From positions 64,001 to 128,000 of the forward strand of contig PSPG01000001.1 of the NCBI GenBank assembly GCA_003193925.1: 64,000 bases of DNA, read 5' to 3'. Shown here piece by piece: positions 37,683-47,263 of this stretch. The stretch comes from Candidatus Thalassarchaeum betae. Lineage in GTDB: Archaea; Thermoplasmatota; Poseidoniia; Poseidoniales; Thalassarchaeaceae. The number at the start of each line of letters is the position of its first letter. The stretch's first letter is position 1. Made by a program: the position numbers and the translations under genes. The notes under the pieces were generated by a model. It had not been told where the DNA came from, did not search any database, and was given only the letters and a program-made list of their open reading frames with translations.

Positions 37683-37884
37683 CGGCTTGTCTCCCACACC
37701 CCTCCGGGAGGGGCTGCACCCCATCATCCTCACTATCGCCGAACCTCGCGCAGGCCCCTGGGAACACCCGAAATCGCACATTTCTCGCCAATATTATTGA
37801 CCCAAACGGTTTACCTGTGGTAATACTCACGAATCTCTATAACCGGTACACATTGTCGCGGGCGCCACTGGAGCGTGAAACGCT

Positions 37885-40800
37885 ATGGAAAATAAGAAAA
37901 TAATTGCAATGATGCTTACCCTGAGCATGCTGACGGCTGCGTTCGTCGGTTGCCTAGGCGGAGATGATGACGAACCGGAACCAGAGATGGTCATGGGTTG
38001 CACGGACGCGGCTGCGAACAACTACAACGCCGACGCGACGATGGACGATGGCTCGTGTACGTATGACCCGACATGGTCCCTGACACCTGCTTCAGGTGTT
38101 AGTGCTGTGTGGGTGACCTCGGACTGGGACCCCATCATCCCCAACCTGATTGCGGGAGATATGTGTGATGCTATTCTCTCGGCAATGACCAAGACGGATG
38201 AGAGAGACCTTGTGGTCGATTTCACTCGTGGCTACTACACCAGCAGCCAAGGAGTCATTGGAGCTAGCGGAGCCGCTGCCATCTCTGGCATCGGCGATTT
38301 GAACGCGGCTGGAACTACGATTGCCCTGCAATCTGGAACCACCTCAGACATCTACGCTCAGGATAACCTGGACGCAGCTACGATCCAAGCCTATCCGGAC
38401 TTCCCCTCGGTAATCGCAGCCATCAACAACGGAGATGCGGACTACGCACTCGGCGACGCACCTGTGCTCGCATTGGAGGGGACTCTTCTGACGACCTTCT
38501 CCGATGAGACATTCGGTCTGGCTATTCGCGAGGGCTCTGACGAGCTCGAAGATGCTCTGAACGTCGCGATAACCGCTCTAGTCGACGGTGGCCAGTACGA
38601 CGCCATCTTCGGAGCCTGGTTCGAGGGCGCGGTCGTCCTGACGGATGACAGAGACGCCAACACAGCGACGGCTTACCCGACACCCACTGAGGGCAGCACC
38701 CTAACCGGTGTCCTCGAGTCTGGTAACCTGAACTTCTGCACGGACCCGTTCTACCCGCCGTTCGAGAACCTCGACGCGGATGGGAACGCAGAGGGCTTCG
38801 ATGTCGATGTCGGCAACGCGATCGCTGAGGAAATGGCCGCCCACTACATGGGTGCGGCCAACCCCGATTTCGTACCGCCTGTTGTTGTGACCACGAAGAT
38901 CGGACTCCTGAACCCACTGACGGGCCCGATCGCTGTCTACGCACCGCCCTTCACTATCGCTGCACAGATGGCGATTGACGACCTGAACGCGGCGGGTGGC
39001 AACTTCGAGCTGGTCGAGGCCGACTCTGGCTGCAGCGGCGATGTCGCTGCTGGAGCCGCCCAGTCCCTAGTGGACGCGGGCGTGGTCGGCGTGGCAGGAG
39101 CTGCCTGCTCCGGTGCTTCGATGGCCGCTAACGCGGTCCTCCATGCTGCCGGTGTCGTGCAGGTCTCCTATGCGAGCACCAACCCCGGTCTGAGCGATGC
39201 AGATGCCTACCCAGGCTTCTGGCGAGTCGTGCCGAGCGATGCCATACAGGGCCCTGCCATGTCTGACATGGTGGCCGCTGCTGGTGCGTCCAACCCGGCA
39301 CTGATCCACATGACCAACGACTACGGTTCTGGTTTGGCAGACGCCTTCGAGGGCGCATGGGGCACTGACAACCTGTGCATCAAGGTCGGCTACGCGGACG
39401 ACCAGACCGACTGGACTGCCGAGGTTCAAGCAATAGGCGACGCTAACTGTGGCTCGGTCGTCATGGTGAGTTACTCCACTGATGGAGCAGCTATCCTTGA
39501 GACAATGGCCGTGGGAGGTATTTCACTACCTACTTTCGGTGCTGACGGCATCGCTGACGCCGCCTTCTTGGACGACTTCAGCGTACCTGCTATCGCTAAC
39601 GGCGTTATGGCTACCAAGCCGCGCGCTGGCTCGAGCGCTGGTGACTTCAACGAGCGCTGCGCTGCGGATGCAGACTGCGCTGGTGGTATCTACACCGCTG
39701 AGACCTACGACGCTGTGATGATGATCGGCGCCGCGTACAACGCGGGCGGCGACATGGCCGATAGCCTCAACTCGGTCGGAGTGGGCTATGGTGGAGCCAG
39801 TGGCTCCCACACGTTCCTTCCGAACGGTGATGTGGCTGGCGCTGGATACGACATCTGCAAGTTCGATGCCCTGTCATCTACTGACATCTACTTCACTTGC
39901 ATGCAGTGGTGGTCAGCGATCGACGGCATCCAGGACACACCCTTTGCGGGTATGACGGTGAAGATCGGCTTCCTGAACCCGATGACGGGCCCGATCGCGG
40001 TCTACGCACCGGGCTTCGGTGTCGCCGCTAACATCGCCCTAGGCATGATGAACATCGCCGGATGGGGCAGCGGACTGCAGTTCGAGTTGGTAATGGTCGA
40101 CTCCGGGTGCAGCCCCGAGACCGCTGCAACCGGCGCCCAGTCCCTACTGGACGCAGGCGTAGTCGGTGTGGTCGGAGCTGCGTGCTCCGGCGCAACGATG
40201 GCCGCCAACGGAATCCTCTCGGCTGCCGGCATCCCGATGATCTCGTACGCGAGCACCAACCCCGGACTCAGCAACGCTACGGCTTACCCGTTGTTCTTCC
40301 GCGTGGTGCCGAGCGACGCCATCCAGGGCCCTGCTCTGGCTGACGTGGTCACCGCCGACGGCGGTTCCGATGTCGCTCTGCTGTACATGACCAACGACTA
40401 CGGCTCGGGTCTGGCAGACTCGTTCGCAGCCGCATGGGAGGGCGCAGGCAACACCCTGTGCGCATCGATAGGCTACGAGGACACAACCACTGACTTCACC
40501 TCGCAGGTGCAGGCCGTGACGGACAACAGCTGTGGCAGCGTTATGCTAATCTCGTACGCTGCTGATGGTGCAGCCATCGTCGAGGAGCTCGCAGCTCAGA
40601 GCTTCTCCGGACAGATCTTCGGAGGCGACGGAATCGCTGAGGAGGGCCTGTGCGCATCTATGGCAGACCCATCCCTGTGCGACGGAATCGTGGCTACCAA
40701 GCCCGCTTCTCCGACGCCGAACGAGCGCTCGGTGGCATTCGGTGCCATCTGCGCTTCGATCCCGGACTGCGCTGGCGGTATCTACACCGCCGAGGCGTTC

Positions 40801-41040
40801 GATGCCATGATCATCCTGGGATACTCTGTGTTCGCGCAGTTGTCCAGCCCCGGAGCGACTCTGGCGCAGATGATCGGCGCCGTCGGTCAGGGATTCGTAG
40901 GCGCCAGTGGCGTCCACACCTTCACCGCTGATGGCGATGTAGGAGGCAGCGGTTACTGTGTTGGCACGTTCAGCATGGTCGACGGTGCGCCTTCCTTCGA
41001 CTGCACCCGCTCGTGGACATTGAGCGGCGGCATAATCTGA
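37885..41040 (+). CDS. Three-domain ABC substrate-binding lipoprotein: class II amino-acid-binding domain (permuted) plus two LivJ-like class I domains
   Basis: Lipobox GCLG; GCTD..A.NY...A..DDGSC linker; SBP_bac_3 motifs; two KIG.LNP.TGPIA...SYASTNPGLS...RVVPSD repeats. Confidence 0.88.
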   Translation: MENKKIIAMMLTLSMLTAAFVGCLGGDDDEPEPEMVMGCTDAAANNYNADATMDDGSCTYDPTWSLTPASGVSAVWVTSDWDPIIPNLIAGDMCDAILSAMTKTDERDLVVDFTRGYYTSSQGVIGASGAAAISGIGDLNAAGTTIALQSGTTSDIYAQDNLDAATIQAYPDFPSVIAAINNGDADYALGDAPVLALEGTLLTTFSDETFGLAIREGSDELEDALNVAITALVDGGQYDAIFGAWFEGAVVLTDDRDANTATAYPTPTEGSTLTGVLESGNLNFCTDPFYPPFENLDADGNAEGFDVDVGNAIAEEMAAHYMGAANPDFVPPVVVTTKIGLLNPLTGPIAVYAPPFTIAAQMAIDDLNAAGGNFELVEADSGCSGDVAAGAAQSLVDAGVVGVAGAACSGASMAANAVLHAAGVVQVSYASTNPGLSDADAYPGFWRVVPSDAIQGPAMSDMVAAAGASNPALIHMTNDYGSGLADAFEGAWGTDNLCIKVGYADDQTDWTAEVQAIGDANCGSVVMVSYSTDGAAILETMAVGGISLPTFGADGIADAAFLDDFSVPAIANGVMATKPRAGSSAGDFNERCAADADCAGGIYTAETYDAVMMIGAAYNAGGDMADSLNSVGVGYGGASGSHTFLPNGDVAGAGYDICKFDALSSTDIYFTCMQWWSAIDGIQDTPFAGMTVKIGFLNPMTGPIAVYAPGFGVAANIALGMMNIAGWGSGLQFELVMVDSGCSPETAATGAQSLLDAGVVGVVGAACSGATMAANGILSAAGIPMISYASTNPGLSNATAYPLFFRVVPSDAIQGPALADVVTADGGSDVALLYMTNDYGSGLADSFAAAWEGAGNTLCASIGYEDTTTDFTSQVQAVTDNSCGSVMLISYAADGAAIVEELAAQSFSGQIFGGDGIAEEGLCASMADPSLCDGIVATKPASPTPNERSVAFGAICASIPDCAGGIYTAEAFDAMIILGYSVFAQLSSPGATLAQMIGAVGQGFVGASGVHTFTADGDVGGSGYCVGTFSMVDGAPSFDCTRSWTLSGGII

Positions 41041-41077
41041 GTCCTAAAAGTGACTGAATGAAAACTGGGAACGTAAA

Positions 41078-41110
41078 GCACCACTGCGGGCTAACTGCCC
41101 GCCGTGGTGC
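41078..41110 (+). promoter_or_regulatory. Intercistronic hairpin after the binding-protein gene
   Basis: GCACCAC-T-GCGGGC-TAACT-GCCCGC-C-GTGGTGC, 13 bp with one mismatch. Confidence 0.55.
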
Positions 41111-41165
41111 CCCCCAACAATGATTACCGCACACAGACAGCGTCGAGCGTGCGGTAGCGCCGCGG

Positions 41166-44100
41166 GTGACGCCGATGCTTGGACCAGTATTCGACAGGTG
41201 GCACTCGCTCTCCAGAGGGCAACGCAGGACAGCCATCGCCCTGCTGATTCTCATAGACGCGAACATCGGCCTGCTGTACGGTTCAGGCCTGCTCAATCAG
41301 TTCGATTCGATATCAGGAGGCAAGATACCCAACGACATGGTCTGGCTTCTCCAGGCCATCGAGTCGATATCCGGCGGATTCTTTCTGGTCAAGATCCTGT
41401 TCGACGACGTCGCGGCCAGTTGGCCCAGATCAATCGGCATCGCTCTGTCCCCCCTGTTCATCCTGTTCATCGTGGGAATGACCCTGGACAACCTGTTCAA
41501 GGGCCTAGATGACGATGTGAGGATCACACTCGATCTGATTTCCATCTCCACTTCCACTCTGACTTGGTCGTCGACCTACCTCGCGATTGCGGTCGGCCTC
41601 ACTCTGACCTACAAGGTCCAGCGCTACGGTAACTTCGCCCAGAGCGAGCTCTTCATGATGGGGATGTATCTCTCTATGGTGATGGTATGGAGCGATTACT
41701 TCTTCCCGCTGTACGACGCACCCAGAGACGGCACTCTGGCCTGGTCCCTGCTGCTCTGGACTGTGCTGGCAGCCTTCGTCCTGACTGGCATAGCTGGCAT
41801 AATCATCGACCGCCTGGTCTACCGGGGCTTCCGCAAGAAGGAAACCAAACCTCAGGTGATGATGATAGCGTCTCTGGGTGTCGCACTCATTCTCAGGGCC
41901 ATCGTCTACCTGCGCTTCGGGGCGGGCAAGAAGATGTTCGAGCCGGATGCGGACTGGAGGGTGCCCACCCTCAGGTGGGACATACCCACACATAAGCTGC
42001 GCCTCAACCTCGGCAACAGGGATCTCGAAGAGGGCCAGACGTACACCCACGGTCCCACCATAGGGGAATGCACCGAAATTGACGGCGCCCTTCAGCCAGA
42101 GGTCAGTGGCTCCACGCCCCTTTTCGATCTGTACAACGCGGCCAACGACTGCGTAACCGAGGCCACCACCGGCTACGCGTACTACAAGGGCGCCATGCCC
42201 CTGGTGATATTCTCCTCTGTCCTCCTTCTGCTAATCCTGCTGAGGAAGACCCGCTTGGGCCGCAGGATGAGGGCGGTCGCCGACAACCCCGACCTCGCAG
42301 CGAGCAGCGGCATCAACGTGGAGAACATCCAGATGACCAGCGCCTTCCTGTCCGCTGGCATCTCGGGAATGGGTGGGGCCATCTTCGCGATGACGCTGAG
42401 GTTCGCCCCCGAGACCGCTTTCACCCTCCTCTTGCCGTCGTTCGCCATCATCGTCCTCGGCACCATCGGCTCGATTCCCGGAGTCCTGGTCGGCTCGCTG
42501 ATCGTCGGATTCGTCAGAGCACTGTCTTCGCCGGTGCTGATTGCCATTGGCCAGCCCCTGGGCCGCTCCAATTACACCGCGCTCGACGGGGTGATGCCCT
42601 ACATCTTCCTCATAGCAATCCTGATGATCATGCCGAGCGGCATCGGCGCCGCCTACGAGAAGTGGAAGGTCGACAGGTTACGCAGACGAGCCGAGGAGCA
42701 GCCATCCAAGCGATTGGGAGGACTCCTCGCCATTTCCCCGTTGGGTGCTTTGGGGGCGCATAACTTCCAGCAGAGGAAGAATGCCCGCGGCGAGTCGATG
42801 ATGATAGTCTCAGTCGGCGCCTACGTATTCAGCAGGATCACCCGCTTCATCAGCGGCAACTCCTTCGCCGACGGCTCGTGCTCGAACGACTGCCAAGCCA
42901 GTGAGTCCTCTGCCACCAACTTCGAGATGGTGACCGGCAGGACGGAAGGCGACTTCATTCTGGAGGACTCGCCATTCTCCCTCTCAGACGTGCCAGACCC
43001 CCCCGACGGTCTGGACGCAACGTTGCACGACCAATGGCTCACCGACGCTCTGAGCGAACTCAACAACTCGTGGTTGGACCTGATGAACACCGAGCTGGGC
43101 CTCGTGGACAACCTCGTGAGCCTCGGCGACGCCCTGTGGCCCGCCGTGCCCCTCCTAGTATGGATAATCGCAGCATTCGAGGGACTTTACCTGCTACAGG
43201 GTCGTGACGAGGACGCCCTGCGGCCCGCGACCGAGTTCCTGAACAGTCTCCTGGCCCCCGTCATGCAGTCGAGAAACTCCGGCTCAGTAGCGATGACCCA
43301 GGCTCTCGGCTTGGCCAAGGCCCCCCTCGATTCGTTCCACACAGCGCTGTATGACAGTCTGGACAGGTTCCAGTCGGGCTTCGACCGTAATCAGAAGTAC
43401 ATGCTCCTAGCAGTCTTGGTGATAGTTCTAGTTTCGGAGTTGCCGCCGTTCTTCGGAAAAGCCCTCCTAGTGCTCGGCTTGCTCTGGCTCGTCGGACTAA
43501 CTATCCTAGCATGGCGCTCAGGCGAGGGGCCCTTGGGAGAACTGAGGCGCCTCTCCCCGCACGGCAGAGAGAGCCCCATCGGTTCGTGGGTGCTCTTCCT
43601 CTCGGTACTGGTATTCCTTCTGCTGTTCGTGGAGTGGCTGCCTGTGGCCGAGGTAGAGAATCATGACTTCATCAAGGCGCTCCAAGTCTCCAACGTCCTG
43701 ACCACTCTGGCCATCTTCACCCTGATGGCTTTCGCCCTGAATCTGCATACGGGCGTAACTGGAATGGTTAACTTCGGCATCATCTTCTTCGTTGGGGTCG
43801 GGGCGATCACCGTCGGCCTCCTCACCGCCCCCAAGGACCTGCACGGGTACGACTGGCCCGTTTTCTGGGCCGTTGTCGCCGCCGTGCTGATCTCAGCAGG
43901 CTTTGGCTGGCTGCTCGCCTATCCCACAGCCAGGCTGAGGATGGACTACTTCGCTATCGTGACGATATCCCTCGGCGAGATTGCCCGCGTCCTCTTGATG
44001 GGGGAGCCACTGCTCAGAGCAGGCTCGTGGGGCTCGGCGATCGGTATCTCGAGGTACAAGCTGCCGTTGAAGGACTGGTGGTTCTGCGGTAGCGGTGAGC

Positions 44101-45062
44101 ATCTGAGCGAAGCGGGAGGGTTACTTAGTTCGGATGAGTGCCGCGGGGTGGTGGGAATCGGCAGCCCGGCGGAGAAGCTCGGCCGCTCTGACATCCCAGT
44201 GCTCGATGACAGGGGAGGAGTCATCGATGGGGAGTTACTTTACGAAGCGACATGGTTCTCGATGGATCTTGGTGAGCCCGCGCCCTACATGATGGTGCTC
44301 GCCATCATCGGCGTCGTCAGCCTGATTCTGATCTGGTGGCTCTTGGAGACGCTGCTCAAGTCCCCGTGGGGGCGGATCCTGCGTTCGATCAGGGAGGACG
44401 AGGAGGTCGCTCAGCACCACGGGCACGATGTGCTCACGCACAAGGCGGCCAGCCTCGCTCTGGGCGCTGGGATAGCAGCCTTCGCCGGTGCCCTGTGGGC
44501 GTGGAAGCTCACCGGCTTCCAACCGTCCTTCATGGCCCCGGCGAAGTCGACCTTCCTGGTCTGGGCCGCGTTCATCGTCGGCGGGGCGGCCAACAACAAG
44601 GGCATGGTGGTGGGAGCGTTCATCATAGTACTCATGGAATTCGTGTTCAATGTCTTAGTTGCCGGCCAAGGCTCGTCAGACCTGCCGCTGCACGAGACCG
44701 CGGCGAAGATTGACCAGCTCTTCGAGTGGCTGGTCACAGGAAGCGATCTGTGGTTCTGGCCCCACACCACCCCGATCGAGACGTTCCTGCTGCTCGCTGC
44801 ATTGGGACTGTTGATCAACAAATCAGCGATGGTCGAACTAGGATTCTCGGGAGTCGCCGTGTTCATGGCAACCTACCTGCTTCTGGGCGAGCGCTCCATC
44901 GACGAGTCGTTCGTCGGCGGCAGCATCCTCGCCAACATGGCCTATGTCAAGGTCTTCCTAGTCGGGTGCCTCATCCTGCTCTCGCTGAAGTACAACGCCA
45001 GGGGCATACTGCCTGAGGTGCCCGTCAGACCACCGAGGCCAACGGAAGGTGATGCGGAATGA
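41166..45062 (+). CDS. Fused LivH-LivM branched-chain amino-acid ABC permease with extra domains
   Basis: LivH half: GLTLTY...NFAQ, GRRMRAVADN...SGIN, LGTIGS. LivM half: ALNLHTGVTGMVNFG, RLRMDYFAIVT, GRILRSIREDE. Confidence 0.9.
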   Translation: MTPMLGPVFDRWHSLSRGQRRTAIALLILIDANIGLLYGSGLLNQFDSISGGKIPNDMVWLLQAIESISGGFFLVKILFDDVAASWPRSIGIALSPLFILFIVGMTLDNLFKGLDDDVRITLDLISISTSTLTWSSTYLAIAVGLTLTYKVQRYGNFAQSELFMMGMYLSMVMVWSDYFFPLYDAPRDGTLAWSLLLWTVLAAFVLTGIAGIIIDRLVYRGFRKKETKPQVMMIASLGVALILRAIVYLRFGAGKKMFEPDADWRVPTLRWDIPTHKLRLNLGNRDLEEGQTYTHGPTIGECTEIDGALQPEVSGSTPLFDLYNAANDCVTEATTGYAYYKGAMPLVIFSSVLLLLILLRKTRLGRRMRAVADNPDLAASSGINVENIQMTSAFLSAGISGMGGAIFAMTLRFAPETAFTLLLPSFAIIVLGTIGSIPGVLVGSLIVGFVRALSSPVLIAIGQPLGRSNYTALDGVMPYIFLIAILMIMPSGIGAAYEKWKVDRLRRRAEEQPSKRLGGLLAISPLGALGAHNFQQRKNARGESMMIVSVGAYVFSRITRFISGNSFADGSCSNDCQASESSATNFEMVTGRTEGDFILEDSPFSLSDVPDPPDGLDATLHDQWLTDALSELNNSWLDLMNTELGLVDNLVSLGDALWPAVPLLVWIIAAFEGLYLLQGRDEDALRPATEFLNSLLAPVMQSRNSGSVAMTQALGLAKAPLDSFHTALYDSLDRFQSGFDRNQKYMLLAVLVIVLVSELPPFFGKALLVLGLLWLVGLTILAWRSGEGPLGELRRLSPHGRESPIGSWVLFLSVLVFLLLFVEWLPVAEVENHDFIKALQVSNVLTTLAIFTLMAFALNLHTGVTGMVNFGIIFFVGVGAITVGLLTAPKDLHGYDWPVFWAVVAAVLISAGFGWLLAYPTARLRMDYFAIVTISLGEIARVLLMGEPLLRAGSWGSAIGISRYKLPLKDWWFCGSGEHLSEAGGLLSSDECRGVVGIGSPAEKLGRSDIPVLDDRGGVIDGELLYEATWFSMDLGEPAPYMMVLAIIGVVSLILIWWLLETLLKSPWGRILRSIREDEEVAQHHGHDVLTHKAASLALGAGIAAFAGALWAWKLTGFQPSFMAPAKSTFLVWAAFIVGGAANNKGMVVGAFIIVLMEFVFNVLVAGQGSSDLPLHETAAKIDQLFEWLVTGSDLWFWPHTTPIETFLLLAALGLLINKSAMVELGFSGVAVFMATYLLLGERSIDESFVGGSILANMAYVKVFLVGCLILLSLKYNARGILPEVPVRPPRPTEGDAE

Positions 45063-46084
45063 AGAACGCGCTGAAGGTCGAGAACCTGCGAATGGAGTTC
45101 GGCGGGCTGGTCGCTGTCAAGGACGTCTCCTTCGAACTCGGCGAAGGCGAGTTCGTGGGCCTCATCGGACCTAACGGATGCGGCAAGTCGACCATCTTCA
45201 ACTGCATCAGCGGCCTGCTTGACCAGACCACCGGAACGGTCGAGGTATTCGGTCAGGACGTCTCCGAGAACAGACCGGATGAGATTCAGAAGCTCGGCCT
45301 CACCCGAACCTTCCAACTCACCAGGCTATGGCGTCAGATGACGGTGGTAGAGAACCTCATGGTGCCTCCGAGAAAGCAGTTCCTCTCCCCCGAGTCCGAA
45401 GCTCCGATGCACCGCGCGTACTCCCTCCTCTCGGTCTTCGCCGTACTCGCCTCCCTCTCGGTAGTGGCGTATTATGCGATTGGGAACGGGGTGTTCTGGT
45501 CGTTGTTCAATCTCATAGCGGCCCTCGGATTGCTCACCGGCGTCATCGCATTCAGGCTGATCGAGGGTAAATCGGAGTTCGACGCAGCCACAGATCGGAT
45601 TGAATCGGCATTCCTCCCCCCGCTGTTCGTACTGCACGCTCTGTTTAGGCCGGGCAGCCGAGCCGCTGAGGAGGAGCGGCTGGCCAAGGCGTACTCGGTG
45701 CTCGACCAGCTCGAGATCCCCCACATGGCTCACAACCTGACCAGCGAGCTCTCCGGCGGTCAGAGCAAGCTCGTCGACATTGGCCGCTCGATGATGGGCG
45801 ACCCACAGTTGCTGCTGCTAGACGAGCCGGTGGCGGGAGTCGCTGGCCCGCTCGCACTGAAGATATTCAACAATCTGAGGAAGATAGTAGATGACACCGG
45901 CATCTCCGTGCTCATCATCGAGCACAACATGGACTTCATCCTCAGGCAGGGAGTCGACCGGATCATCGTCATGAAGGAGGGCGAGATACTGATGCAGGGC
46001 ACGCCCGACGAGGTCAGGGGCAACAGAGCGGTCATCGAGGCCTACCTCGGAGCCGCAGGAGAGCCCCAGGAGGTAGAGGAATGA
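45059..46084 (+). CDS. livG: ABC ATPase LivG with a hydrophobic insert
   Basis: FGGLVAV, GPNGCGKS, RTFQ, LSGGQ, LLLDEP, IEHNM and EAYLG motifs. Confidence 0.9.
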   Translation: MKNALKVENLRMEFGGLVAVKDVSFELGEGEFVGLIGPNGCGKSTIFNCISGLLDQTTGTVEVFGQDVSENRPDEIQKLGLTRTFQLTRLWRQMTVVENLMVPPRKQFLSPESEAPMHRAYSLLSVFAVLASLSVVAYYAIGNGVFWSLFNLIAALGLLTGVIAFRLIEGKSEFDAATDRIESAFLPPLFVLHALFRPGSRAAEEERLAKAYSVLDQLEIPHMAHNLTSELSGGQSKLVDIGRSMMGDPQLLLLDEPVAGVAGPLALKIFNNLRKIVDDTGISVLIIEHNMDFILRQGVDRIIVMKEGEILMQGTPDEVRGNRAVIEAYLGAAGEPQEVEE

Positions 46085-46800
46085 CCAGAGTCCTGGAAAT
46101 CAAGAACCTTGAGGCAGGCTATGGCTCGGTACAGATCCTGCATGGCATAGACATGCATGTCGACGAGGGCGAGTTCGTCACCGTCATCGGTCCCAACGGC
46201 TGCGGCAAATCCACCCTGATCAAGACCATATTCGGGATCGCCACCTACTACCGCGGCGACATCGAGTATCGCGACAGGGACGTCTCGGGATGGAGGACAG
46301 ACCAACTCGTGAATCACGGGATAGCATACGTCCCCCAAGTCGACAACGTGTTCCCATCGCTTTCAGTCGAGGAGAACCTGCAGATGGGTGGCAACACGCT
46401 GGACACCAGAACGCTCAACGAGAGGATTGAGAGATCACTCACCATGTTCCCAGACCTGCGAAACAGGGTCCACGACCTAGCAGCCTCGCTCTCGGGCGGC
46501 GAGCGCCAGATGCTCGCCATCTCGCGCGCGCTCATCTCCGACCCGAACTTCCTGCTTCTCGACGAGCCCACCGCCGCGCTCTCACCGCTCTACCAGCAGC
46601 AGATCATCGAGCGCATCGACTCCCTGCGAAAGGACGGAATCACCGTTCTCATCGTCGAGCAGAACGCCCGTCTCTCCCTGTCGCGCTCCGACCGCGGCTA
46701 CATCATGGCCAACGGCAAAATCGTCCACACCGGCGATGCCCAGCACATCCTCACAGACCCTGAGATCGCCGAGTACTTCCTCGGCGGGACCTCCGACTAG
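46081..46800 (+). CDS. livF: ABC ATPase LivF
   Basis: GPNGCGKS, YVPQ..NVF, LSGGERQMLA, LDEP and VEQN motifs. Confidence 0.93.
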   Translation: MTRVLEIKNLEAGYGSVQILHGIDMHVDEGEFVTVIGPNGCGKSTLIKTIFGIATYYRGDIEYRDRDVSGWRTDQLVNHGIAYVPQVDNVFPSLSVEENLQMGGNTLDTRTLNERIERSLTMFPDLRNRVHDLAASLSGGERQMLAISRALISDPNFLLLDEPTAALSPLYQQQIIERIDSLRKDGITVLIVEQNARLSLSRSDRGYIMANGKIVHTGDAQHILTDPEIAEYFLGGTSD

Positions 46801-46825
46801 CCAGGCCGCTCGCGTAGGTGACTTT

Positions 46826-47263
46826 TCAGGGAATATCGCAGAAGGACAGCCTCAGGAACTCGCTGTCGGTAGCCACCCTCTCGAACGGACCCCGGTTTGC
46901 TCCACTAAGGTCCCTGAGGTGGATCTCGGCGGTCACCGCCACTATAGCACTGATGAGGTGGCCGCCGCGGACCACATGCCCATCATCGGACAGAACGACG
47001 TGGATGTGCGTGAAAGGGCCATCCGGTCCGGGAGCCAGATTCCCCTCAGTCGAGAGCAGTTCCATCGCGTCCACGTGAAGCGCGGTGCGGTAGGACCCAT
47101 CACCATCCAGATAGCCCATTTCCGTATCTCTCACGCGGCCGATGCCGCTGGTTATGGCGGCGGCCGTGATCCCATGCTGCGACAGACTGCGCAGCGACTC
47201 GTGCAACTCCTCGCCCGGATCAAGCCTGACGAAGACGTCTTTGCCGTCCTGCGCGAACTCCAC
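46826..47263 (-). CDS. PPC/DUF296 domain protein
   Basis: RLDPGEEL, GIG, ELLSTEGN, HIHVVL, GGHL and TAEI motifs. Confidence 0.88.
   Translation of the reverse strand: MEFAQDGKDVFVRLDPGEELHESLRSLSQHGITAAAITSGIGRVRDTEMGYLDGDGSYRTALHVDAMELLSTEGNLAPGPDGPFTHIHVVLSDDGHVVRGGHLISAIVAVTAEIHLRDLSGANRGPFERVATDSEFLRLSFCDIP

Follow-up and report, generated by a model that had tools for sequence, protein, structure and literature searches.

ABC importers of the Liv/Bra/Urt type, the HAAT family (which we take to be TC 3.A.1.4), are represented in Escherichia coli by LivJ/LivK-LivHMGF, a system with a free receptor protein of ~370 amino acids, LivH and LivM permeases and two different ATPases encoded in the order permease-LivG-LivF. 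LivG of Methanocaldococcus jannaschii (MJ1267) has been solved (PDB 1g6h, 1g9x and 1gaj). In the PAAT-type transporter GlnPQ of Lactococcus lactis, serial binding domains (SBD1-SBD2) are tethered beside one translocon; these domains are all of class II and form part of the same polypeptide as the permease, and the translocon is of the BPD_transp_1 type. The concept of tandem receptor domains of the GlnPQ type is set out in the accessible part of bioRxiv 10.1101/2020.12.19.423572, and Tp0684 (MglB-2) of Treponema pallidum, a standalone class I sugar binder, is presented in the accessible part of PMC4990184 as a natural circularly permuted periplasmic-binding-protein fold.

Layout of the locus and family assignment

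We analysed a window of 64,000 nucleotides (the whole stretch of DNA under study) from Candidatus Thalassarchaeum betae. Within it, the following features make up the locus:

37885..41040, + strand: receptor gene, 1051 amino acids (ORF list and Pfam)
41078..41110, + strand: stable stem-loop in the receptor-permease spacer (MFE -30.7 kcal/mol)
41166..45062, + strand: LivH-LivM single-chain permease, 1298 amino acids (two BPD_transp_2 stretches in Pfam)
45059..46084, + strand: LivG-type ATPase with an insertion, 341 amino acids (Pfam ABC_tran and BCA_ABC_TP_C)
46081..46800, + strand: ordinary LivF-type ATPase, 239 amino acids (Pfam ABC_tran)

An earlier note on this DNA had placed four open reading frames here and read them as a Liv-type operon. 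The reading frames match its coordinates exactly, and domain content by Pfam and NCBIfam agrees with the best solved relatives, LivJ and MJ1267, on the HAAT assignment; the domain scan that it had proposed, for SBP_bac_3, Peripla_BP_6/ANF_receptor, BPD_transp_2 and ABC_tran, found all of them. Genes overlap by 4 nt at both the permease/LivG and the LivG/LivF junctions. The permease starts with GTG, and its protein atlas record begins at an ATG three codons downstream. The spacer stem-loop is far more stable than expected by chance (z=-5.49; 0 of 200 shuffles equally stable) and may act as an attenuator or stabiliser. Judged from sequence, the region is very probably one operon for a HAAT-family ABC amino-acid importer with an architecture typical of the Marine Group II lineage.

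The locus shares with the E. coli system the Pfam families of all components, the permease-LivG-LivF order and the use of two different ATPases. It differs in that the receptor is one chain of three modules, presumably anchored, rather than a free protein, that a class II module has been added to it, and that LivH and LivM form a single chain that contains two ~85-residue loops and ~6-9 additional hydrophobic segments. The best NCBIfam matches of the ATPases are LivG (210.5 bits) and LivF (219.3 bits over 4-236 of 5-237/237). All of the equivalog cut-offs were missed, however (LivJ 179 vs 477, LivH 79 vs 379, LivM 91 vs 366, LivG 210 vs 362 and LivF 219 vs 441 bits), and substrate identity is therefore not transferable from E. 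coli. The four-gene system is an odd build of a well-known transporter type, not a new kind of system.

A three-module receptor with a circularly permuted class II module

The receptor is composed as follows:

37885..37953, + strand: residues 1-23, signal peptide that ends in a lipobox-like ..FVGC (translation; hydropathy)
37999..38064, + strand: short Cys-Asn-Tyr-rich leader module, residues 39-60 (matches in other surface-protein ORFs)
38080..38634, + strand: class II (SBP_bac_3) large piece, canonical positions ~61-246 (Pfam, TIGR01096, 5t0w_A)
38635..38850, + strand: joining linker and class II small piece, canonical positions ~13-61 (Pfam, 5t0w_A)
38887..39933, + strand: class I module 1, Peripla_BP_6/ANF_receptor (Pfam E=3e-30)
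39952..41037, + strand: class I module 2, Peripla_BP_6/ANF_receptor (Pfam E=3.7e-38)

As had been noted before, the receptor combines three ligand-binding modules that belong to two fold classes; Pfam bears this out (SBP_bac_3 at 85.1 bits and two Peripla_BP_6/ANF_receptor stretches at 220.9/195 bits). The class I modules are 52% identical to each other, and E. coli LivJ is their best match of solved structure (1z15, E=2.1e-21 for module 2). The only hydrophobic segment of the chain is N-terminal (residues 5-26), and an ..AGC motif is retained in the homologues P0248 and P0251; the lipobox-like ..FVGC is a candidate site of lipid modification. Residues ~5-62, which include the leader module, match dozens of otherwise unrelated ORFs of ~700 amino acids in this genome and its relatives, sometimes in tandem, and a Pfam search with the leader module gave no family.

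The class II module is circularly permuted, a feature that was not noticed in the earlier note and is an addition of the present analysis. Receptor residues 71-247 correspond to the C-terminal three quarters of SBP_bac_3 and residues ~270-318 to its N-terminal quarter. In HMMER alignments, positions 61-246 of PDB 5t0w_A fall on receptor residues 71-247 and positions 13-61 on residues 270-318, and the same split is seen against the Pfam profile (37-131 of 132 for the large piece, 1-38 for the small one); the large piece also covers 66-250 of 250 in TIGR01096. Because the N-terminal quarter of the domain is placed after its C-terminal part, the order of the two is permuted. Whereas Tp0684 is a standalone class I protein, the permuted domain here is an amino-acid-type class II module within a multi-module receptor.

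AF2 modelled the module as one compact class II domain when given an alignment of 79 sequences (mean pLDDT 91.3, pTM 0.86; displaced small piece pLDDT 92-97); with an alignment of nine sequences the pLDDT was 37.8. Foldseek fitted the module to ligand-bound amino-acid binders over 176-196 columns at 1.6-2.1 A. Its best matches by sequence and by fold include the GlnPQ tandem 6h30, whose collinear alignment to the module gave 18.6 A. These confidence values, together with the poor fit to the tandem, suggest that the displaced piece occupies its canonical position in the fold. In HMMER alignments, solved amino-acid binders share with the module the Arg of its ..TDER.., its GTT(S) turn and the Asp of its ..GDAPV.., which we take, from work on LAO/HisJ/GlnBP, to be ligand-binding residues. 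The most likely ligand of the class II module is an alpha-amino acid.

The single-chain permease

Four regions are distinguished within the permease:

41166..41540, + strand: N-terminal extension with ~3 hydrophobic segments, residues 1-125 (hydropathy, 13 aligned homologues)
41928..42176, + strand: large loop 1, residues 255-337, bearing two conserved, paired Cys (alignment)
42666..43655, + strand: inter-half linker, residues 501-830 (conservation, alignment, hydropathy)
44007..44267, + strand: large loop 2, residues 948-1034 of the LivM-like half, also bearing two conserved, paired Cys (alignment)

The two BPD_transp_2 stretches score 223.2 bits, and NCBIfam assigns UrtB/LivH to residues 337-498 and LivM/UrtC to residues 834-1162. 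Hydropathy gives roughly 25-30 hydrophobic segments. The earlier description of LivH fused to LivM, with additional segments and with loops that contain Cys, is upheld. Conservation along the N-terminal extension is 0.41-0.77, and a Pfam search with it gave no family. Loop 1 is acidic (K+R 7, D+E 14, 2 Cys) and immediately precedes the helix leading to the first cytoplasmic coupling loop, a position that would place it outside the cell; loop 2 has K+R 8, D+E 13 and 2 Cys. Several segments of the linker are hydrophobic, and one of its loops is acidic and has a CxxxC motif. The linker also includes a lineage-specific hydrophobic hairpin (~745-786), which 5 of 12 aligned homologues share. A search by sequence for a solved HAAT permease found none, and the topology and docking surfaces proposed here are based on hydropathy and on the positions of the coupling loops.

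The fused permease was found in 28 of 41 relatives, including all 20 of the genus, and stop-free open frames of 1199-1335 amino acids encode it in relatives. A sample spanning the phylum yielded it in 14 of 21 genomes of group f1, 11 of 42 of f3 and 4 of 8 of f4 (another order of the same class), with open frames of 1059-1156 amino acids.

A lineage-restricted insert in LivG

Compared with MJ1267, its best solved relative (1g6h; E=1.6e-44, both protein halves aligned), LivG is ~77 residues longer owing to two hydrophobic helices that fall between MJ1267 residues 106 and 115:

45383..45616, + strand: 77-codon in-frame insertion, two hydrophobic helices joined by GNG (gap in orthologues)

The insert is flanked by an imperfect direct repeat of 12-13 nt, which leaves its boundaries ambiguous by ~12 nt, and hydropathy places two hydrophobic segments within residues 120-167. 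All seven aligned orthologues of the genus have a gap at this site. The insert is nevertheless real: contigs of the public assemblies X9 and X12 cover it, and the exact protein is present on 88 contigs. The earlier note saw the hydrophobic insert correctly, but the membrane-tethered ATPase that it proposed does not belong to the conserved design, since the insert is confined to a narrow lineage and is not a feature of the system.

The hairpin sits in a subfamily-specific loop and probably enters the membrane partway, next to the translocon. It is quite possible, if short of probable, that it is instead a functionless passenger tolerated in a surface loop or, in a stronger form, that it cripples LivG in this lineage. 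The insert was absent from every LivG orthologue found in 40 relatives (open frames of 261-304 amino acids) and is missing from a further 150 genomes of the order at the DNA level, it occurs in two protein clusters only, with no homologue found beyond them, the host loop varies in length among orthologues, and the flanking repeat suggests an insertion or slippage accident. Against a passenger, the insert is in frame and stop-free, the Walker A, Q-loop, signature, Walker B and H-switch motifs are all present, and the abundance of the exact protein on contigs speaks the same way. Its GC3 of 0.75 is near the 0.82 of the remaining gene sequence. In a second lineage, ~9% apart (31-32 of 341 residues), length and hydrophobicity are kept and the insert has changed about as fast as the remainder of the protein (7-9 of 77 residues, compared with 23-24 of the other 264). 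Two well-formed hydrophobic helices with basic flanks would also be unexpected of a random insert.

Proposed mechanism and possible partners of the class II module

The best reading of the receptor, by analogy, is a lipid-anchored multi-module protein that would function like the tandem receptor domains of GlnPQ. It would be exported and held at the membrane by its N-terminal lipobox anchor, with three putative amino-acid-binding modules in series: the permuted class II module (polar-amino-acid type) nearest the membrane and then the two duplicated LivJ-like class I modules, which would catch amino acids and deliver them by docking to the translocon, the single LivH-LivM chain. Each half of the translocon would retain its cytoplasmic coupling loop and present a large Cys-paired loop outside the cell, and ATP hydrolysis by a LivG/LivF heterodimer would power import. 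Tethering the modules beside one translocon would raise the local receptor concentration and probably widen specificity as in GlnPQ, the modules here probably also differing in what they bind. Unlike in GlnPQ, the receptor would be a separate lipoprotein chain, it mixes class II with class I modules, and its operon encodes a BPD_transp_2 permease.

Class II binders are known to dock on BPD_transp_1 and not BPD_transp_2 permeases, so the operon offers the class II module no precedented partner. The module make-up of the receptor varies among relatives (two class I modules in genome G031, three in G036, and class II plus two class I in f1). A search that started from a standalone class II relative gave matches in 47 of 74 f1 genomes (48 of 151 genomes including the present one), in 0 of 74 f3 genomes and in 0 of 2 f2 genomes. 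Nearly all of the matches listed are two non-collinear pieces within receptor-length open frames, which places these class II relatives inside the fused receptor.

One reading, that of the earlier note, which we hold to be doubtful, has the class II module share the LivH-LivM translocon with the class I modules, so that one HAAT transporter would import both polar and hydrophobic amino acids from a single multivalent receptor. In its favour, the module has stayed fused in frame, beside the membrane anchor, in the HAAT receptor of those f1 genomes, which span at least seven genera, and its closest relatives in the sampled genomes of the order lie, for nearly all matches listed, in frames of receptor length. 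The module also keeps the residues for ligand contact and is modelled as a complete domain in closed form, and the large conserved loops and extra segments of the permease could offer new docking surfaces. To our knowledge, however, no class II binder docks on a BPD_transp_2 permease, and the permease extras occur equally in f3 and f4 lineages whose receptors are without class II, and are therefore no adaptation to it.

We also think it rather unlikely that the module serves a PAAT-type system elsewhere in the genome in trans, or that it delivers to no translocon and acts as a local ligand trap, spacer or sensor. On the side of this reading, docking between binders and permeases is normally family-specific, and genes for a BPD_transp_1 permease, a GlnQ-like ATPase and an SBP_bac_3 protein lie on contig C16 of this genome. 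The C16 binder is also permuted (SBP_bac_3 profile 2-96 at residues 204-307 of 348). In addition, the accessible part of PMC9723583 describes aapJ and livK as genes that are both common among Thalassarchaeaceae but not among Poseidoniaceae. On the other hand, the C16 system owns an anchored binder that is just 31% identical to the class II module of the receptor, and a tether in a LivHM-docking receptor would keep the module off another translocon unless the two systems lay side by side.

Independent assemblies and relation to published work

The fusions are bridged by independent public assemblies: X8 record 19 (40253-45458) and X12 record 6 (40974-45511) each span the whole permease, and X8 record 18 (38287-40251) bridges both inter-module junctions of the receptor. 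Full-length receptor orthologues at 60-85% identity occur in five relatives (G012, G001, G003, G014 and G023). Among 8000 sequences scored, 747 were receptor homologues at E<=0.001; all 120 of those listed combine PF00497, PF01094 and PF13458, and the sources of the close homologues are named Marine Group II, Ca. Thalassarchaeum or Poseidoniales. Although the source assembly is fragmented (23 contigs), it is thus extremely improbable that the fusions or the insert are artefacts of assembly or binning, a concern raised in the earlier note, given contigs from independent studies that run across the insert, the junctions of the receptor and the permease, hundreds of same-length homologues from many sources, and stop-free open frames in relatives from Poseidoniales and a sister order.

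To call the locus an undescribed system, as had been suggested, is too strong: the operon genes are already in databases under generic names, and livK is known. The part of that suggestion that stands concerns the architecture, of which we found no description in the literature searched, as far as the accessible portions of its sources extend. Clusters from Pseudomonadota that combine Peripla_BP_6 with NMT1_3 (~781 amino acids) or DctP with Peripla_BP_6 (~706 amino acids) also fuse a class I LivJ-like binder to one of another family; they have different partner families and are only leads from a feature search, in which they scored 0.80-0.83.

livK is among the most transcribed genes of Thalassarchaeaceae according to the accessible part of PMC9723583. 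Of the four genes of the operon, contigs from an RNA library cover that of the receptor only, a weak hint that receptor mRNA may be in excess.

A four-gene operon that most likely encodes a HAAT importer

Four ORFs, all on one strand, make up the operon in the window (C7:64001-128000 of G000, the genome from which the window is taken), and the ORF map places them at exactly the coordinates that the earlier note had proposed:

37885-41040, + strand: receptor ORF, 1051 aa
41166-45062, + strand: permease ORF, 1298 aa
45059-46084, + strand: LivG-type ATPase ORF, 341 aa
46081-46800, + strand: LivF-type ATPase ORF, 239 aa

The permease and LivG ORFs overlap by 4 nt, as do the LivG and LivF ORFs, and the genes upstream (MoaA-like, Trm1 and AIR-synthase-related) and downstream (MCM and GatE-like) are unrelated to the operon. 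Receptor and permease are distinct ORFs separated by a 125-nt spacer containing a very stable stem-loop (41078-41110; -30.7 kcal/mol, z=-5.49), which may be a transcript-end or stabiliser element giving an excess of receptor mRNA. Contigs of the RNA library (public run X15) cover the receptor gene up to position 41165 and none of the permease gene, a pattern that does not imply that the permease is silent.

Each of the Pfam families that had been anticipated for the operon (SBP_bac_3, Peripla_BP_6/ANF_receptor, BPD_transp_2 and ABC_tran) was matched. Specifically, the receptor carries SBP_bac_3, the class II or PAAT-type binder, and two Peripla_BP_6/ANF_receptor stretches, the class I or LivJ-like binder; the permease matches PF02653 (BPD_transp_2) in two stretches of a single chain (223.2 bits against a cut-off of 26.8); the 341-aa protein matches PF00005 (ABC_tran) together with the LivG-type C-terminal motif PF12399 (BCA_ABC_TP_C, 36.5 bits against 25.5); and the 239-aa protein matches ABC_tran and has LivF as its top NCBIfam match. 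The top-ranked NCBIfam models for the operon proteins are of the LivJ, LivH/UrtB, LivM/UrtC, LivG and LivF types, and all of them fall short of the equivalog or subfamily cut-offs set for E. coli LivJHMGF (LivJ-type 179.1 against 477, LivH 78.9 against 379, LivM 91.1 against 366, LivG 210.5 against 362 and LivF 219.3 against 441). Because every one of these cut-offs is missed, we take the operon to encode a member of the HAAT family and not an orthologue whose substrate could be transferred to it. Two BPD_transp_2 domains, LivG- and LivF-type ATPases and a co-encoded class I receptor are all present, and the operon, judged by these features, most likely encodes a HAAT importer. E. coli LivJHMGF has the same family features, whereas here both BPD_transp_2 domains lie in one chain.

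The permease and receptor fusions are genuine and conserved

Contigs of four public runs were mapped on window positions 37800-46900, two of the runs (X9 and X12) belonging to studies distinct from the one that probably yielded the assembly. The entire permease gene is spanned by record 19 of run X8 (40253-45458) and by record 6 of X12 (40974-45511), and both inter-module junctions of the receptor are spanned by record 18 of X8 (38287-40251). These bridging contigs from independent runs, together with equal open frames in relatives, rule out an assembly artefact as the source of the fusions, which are thus genuine, as the earlier note had supposed.

A survey of 41 genomes (40 relatives and G000) matched the fused permease in 28, including 20 of 20 in the genus, where the frames are uninterrupted and 1199-1335 aa long; full-length three-module receptors of 60-85% identity were found in five relatives (G012, G001, G003, G014 and G023). 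In a large protein collection, 747 receptor homologues scored at E<=0.001 among 8000 scored, with PF00497, PF01094 and PF13458 all present in 120 of 120 among the matches listed, and 1053 permease homologues passed, with lengths of 842-1602 aa among the 120 matches listed. Where these homologues have a source name, it is Marine Group II euryarchaeote, Ca. Thalassarchaeum, Thalassarchaeaceae or Poseidoniales. Across a phylum-wide sample of 301 genomes, strong permease matches occurred only in three families, f1 (14/21), f3 (11/42) and f4 (4/8), the last belonging to another order of the same class and having a fused frame of 1059-1156 aa.

The number and type of receptor modules differ between lineages. 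A class II module with two class I modules was found in 47 of 74 sampled f1 genomes, and a protein atlas includes a 761-aa cluster that combines class II with class I. In family f3, genome G031 (locus L019) encodes a 749-aa receptor with two class I modules and a 1203-aa permease, and G036 (locus L020) an 1114-aa receptor with three class I modules and a 1206-aa permease, both receptors being without a class II module. In the window's receptor, class I modules 1 and 2 are 52% identical to each other, and among solved proteins E. coli LivJ is closest to them (E=2.1e-21).

The permease consists of a LivH-like half (residues ~126-500) and a LivM-like half (~831-1298), with LivH/UrtB profiles of NCBIfam matching 337-498 and LivM/UrtC profiles matching 834-1162. 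Each half keeps a basic coupling loop (360-390 and 1064-1094) and has a loop of ~85 aa with a conserved Cys pair (255-337 and 948-1034) that directly precedes the helix leading into the coupling loop, a position from which we place the Cys-paired loops outside the cell. Beyond the two halves, the permease has an N-terminal extension (1-125) with about three hydrophobic segments and a 330-aa inter-half linker with several hydrophobic segments and an acidic CxxxC loop, both of which are conserved (0.4-0.8 identity in 12 homologues, including two from f3). Hydropathy alone suggests ~25-30 membrane segments in total. The conserved extras of the permease do not track the presence of the class II module. 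A hydrophobic hairpin in the linker (~745-786; window 43398-43523) occurs in only 5 of 12 aligned homologues.

A circularly permuted class II module

The SBP_bac_3 (PF00497) match in the receptor is strong (85.1 bits against a cut-off of 26.4), and its order is unusual: receptor residues 71-247 correspond to profile positions 37-131 of 132 in Pfam (and to positions 66-250 of 250 in TIGR01096), and profile positions 1-38 are found C-terminal to these, at residues ~282-319. Alignment to the solved binder AncCDT-1 (5t0w_A) gives an exact break, chain residues 13-61 falling on receptor residues 270-318 and chain residues 61-246 on 71-247. The receptor's class II module is, on these alignments, a circular permutant in which the canonical N-to-C order of elements is not kept.

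The earlier note had made its reading depend on this domain folding. AlphaFold2 (AF2) with a 79-sequence alignment returned a confident single-domain model (mean pLDDT 91.3, pTM 0.86; 92-97 in the displaced piece); with a 9-sequence alignment pLDDT was 37.8 and there was no usable model. Comparison of the AF2 model with ligand-bound glutamine, arginine and lysine binders by Foldseek aligned 176-196 columns of the collinear part at 1.6-2.1 A, with a TM-score (normalised to the target) of ~0.7, and a collinear superposition on the GlnPQ tandem 6h30 fitted poorly (278 columns, 18.6 A). The good AF2 and Foldseek scores, taken with the poor tandem fit, indicate that the two pieces form a single domain in the model and are not what is left of two separate ones, and the modelled class II module is a complete two-lobed fold. 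An Arg, a Ser/Thr turn and an Asp, which presumably contact the ligand's alpha-carboxylate and alpha-ammonium groups throughout the SBP_bac_3 family, align with those of solved binders and are conserved, the Arg being invariant in the 79 sequences.

HMMER, run in full against 1.84 billion representatives, yielded 6230 relatives of the class II module at E<=0.001; in the 150 best of the 6230, each of the query's two pieces was then located separately. Among these 150 are canonical single domains, tandem arrays, proteins with the receptor's order (P0247-P0255) and at least two further permutations. The further permutations (P0257, P0260 and P0264; P0262 and P0265) are complete standalone class II binders of ~310-360 aa, each with its own signal peptide and, at the C-terminus, a membrane anchor whose last residues are basic, and one joining linker is common to all permuted forms. 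Since one-domain windows cut variously from a tandem array would give exactly this pattern, we infer that the permutation arose by duplication, different permuted forms representing different windows of the array. The forms would provide a natural circular-permutant series of a much-engineered biosensor scaffold. A search for standalone class II relatives beside a PAAT permease, with P0257 as query, gave no collinear standalone match in 151 sampled Poseidoniales genomes; the two collinear matches are in frames of 773 and 894 aa. Almost every match listed lay inside a receptor-length frame, so that the search does not inform on the ancestral partner of the module.

G000 also encodes a PAAT-type system elsewhere (locus L032):

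C16:85685-89829: binder, permease and ATPase of a PAAT-type system

The binder of this system, which has a signal peptide and is anchored in the membrane at its C-terminus, is itself permuted: its residues 204-307 of 348 match SBP_bac_3 profile positions 2-96. The permease is of the BPD_transp_1 type, with a Ycf48/BNR-like segment at the N-terminus, and the ATPase is GlnQ-like.

Possible routes for the class II ligand

Amino acids would, in the mechanism we predict, be taken up by receptor modules tethered in series beside a single-chain LivH-LivM translocon. Ligand bound by the class II module could enter this same translocon, which was the idea put forward in the earlier note. The module is not encoded with a BPD_transp_1 permease, the permease of the operon being of the BPD_transp_2 type, and we know of no precedent for the docking of a class II binder on a BPD_transp_2 translocon. 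The ligand could instead be passed to the PAAT system on C16, or could be delivered to neither translocon. The composite proposal, in which the permuted class II module hands its substrate to a BPD_transp_2 translocon on a platform of the permease's Cys-paired loops and extra helices and, separately, a two-helix hairpin in the subfamily-specific loop of LivG makes this ATPase an integral membrane protein in this lineage, seems to us unlikely to hold as a whole; if it did, the hairpin-bearing LivG would represent a new way in which an ABC ATPase is coupled or regulated at the membrane.

A putative membrane hairpin in LivG

The hydrophobic insert that had been described in LivG proved to be real, being present in independent contigs and in a second lineage, yet it does not belong to the general design of the system, as it is absent from the orthologues of relatives. 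All LivG orthologues found in the 40 relatives are frames of 261-304 aa that match residues 1-~110 and 192-340, and seven aligned orthologues from the genus show a clean gap of 76-77 residues at the insert. The insert is 231 nt long with an imperfect direct repeat of 12-13 nt on either side, lies between the equivalents of MJ1267 residues 106 and 115, and leaves all of the ATPase motifs intact. It comprises two helices (~120-142 and 145-167) linked by GNG and with basic flanks, and is most naturally read as a putative membrane hairpin. Forms of LivG that have or lack this predicted hairpin would make a natural pair of ABC ATPases in near-identical backgrounds.

The insert is covered by record 28 of X9 (43528-45652) and by the overlapping records 6 and 7 of X12, and the exact insert-bearing protein is found on 88 contigs of the collection. 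The second lineage (proteins P0400 and P0411) differs at 31-32 of 341 residues and has an insert of the same length, 7-9 of the changes falling in the insert's 77 residues and 23-24 in the remaining 264. Two further proteins, P0407 and P0409, have N- or C-terminal parts that mix the states of the two insert-bearing lineages and look like recombinants within the population.

Several other origins for the insert were considered. A spliced archaeal intron is rejected, as the four runs showed no joint that skips the insert and position 45415, which lies within it, is present in an RNA-library contig; an X9 joint (45364->46648) and other short-sided LivG/LivF joints have sides of 20-35 nt in paralogous ATPase sequence, and so probably derive from paralogues or from other organisms. 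The idea of a repeat or mobile element found no support: blastn and tblastn against G000 gave no further copy, none of 150 other genomes in the order matched, and Pfam matches were at chance level (TauE, E=0.0012, below the cut-off). Protein homologues beyond the insert's own two clusters were absent from the length range searched. An intein is dismissed because the ends of the insert are without intein-like residues.

Relation to known systems

In the surface ocean, Marine Group II archaea rank with the most abundant archaea; to our knowledge, they have never been cultured. According to the accessible text of PMC9723583, livK and aapJ belong to the most transcribed genes of Thalassarchaeaceae and are collocated with full transporters, and that of PMC6336850 describes branched-chain amino-acid binding proteins in most MGIIb subclades. 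With the receptor gene among the most transcribed (PMC9723583), the system is probably a main uptake route for dissolved amino acids. Neither of these accessible texts mentions the architecture, and descriptions of the fused permease, of the three-module receptor or of the permutation were absent from the literature searched, although the genes may be listed in the supplements of the two papers. The possibility that the architecture had already been characterised thus found no support in that literature; the observation made in the earlier note is confirmed and its interpretation partly supported.

As in GlnPQ, at least two binding domains (here three, in one ORF) are strung beside one translocon, whereas in GlnPQ the binding domains are fused to the permease polypeptide and here the receptor ORF is separate; the tandem-domain logic of GlnPQ is treated in the accessible text of bioRxiv 10.1101/2020.12.19.423572. 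A "livK" that has three modules of two classes and is partly permuted changes how transcripts and peptides are counted, which substrates are to be tested and how specificity is predicted. The single-chain translocon is possibly a good target for a first structure of a HAAT permease, since a PDB sequence search with the whole permease found no solved one at E<=0.001 and the LivH-like half gave one chance match only at E<=10.

The receptor leader

Receptor residues 1-23 form a probable signal peptide in which a KK n-region and a hydrophobic core are followed by a lipobox-like ..FVGC (residues 20-23), the motif having an ..AGC version in receptor homologues; the receptor is on this ground a candidate archaeal lipoprotein. 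A short module follows:

Residues 39-60 (window 37999-38064), + strand: Cys/Asn/Tyr-rich short module, recognised by sequence matches; no Pfam family matched

This leader of signal peptide and Cys/Asn/Tyr-rich module, the latter sometimes in 2-3 tandem copies, also opens dozens of surface-protein ORFs (~700 aa) that are otherwise unrelated, in G000 and in its relatives, another site being C9:44027-44383 of G000. Close to the receptor gene's start, the sequence of X8 and X12 contigs goes back 84 positions (window 38069/37986) with 3 extra letters, suggesting a length variant, or a related strain, in the region of the leader module.
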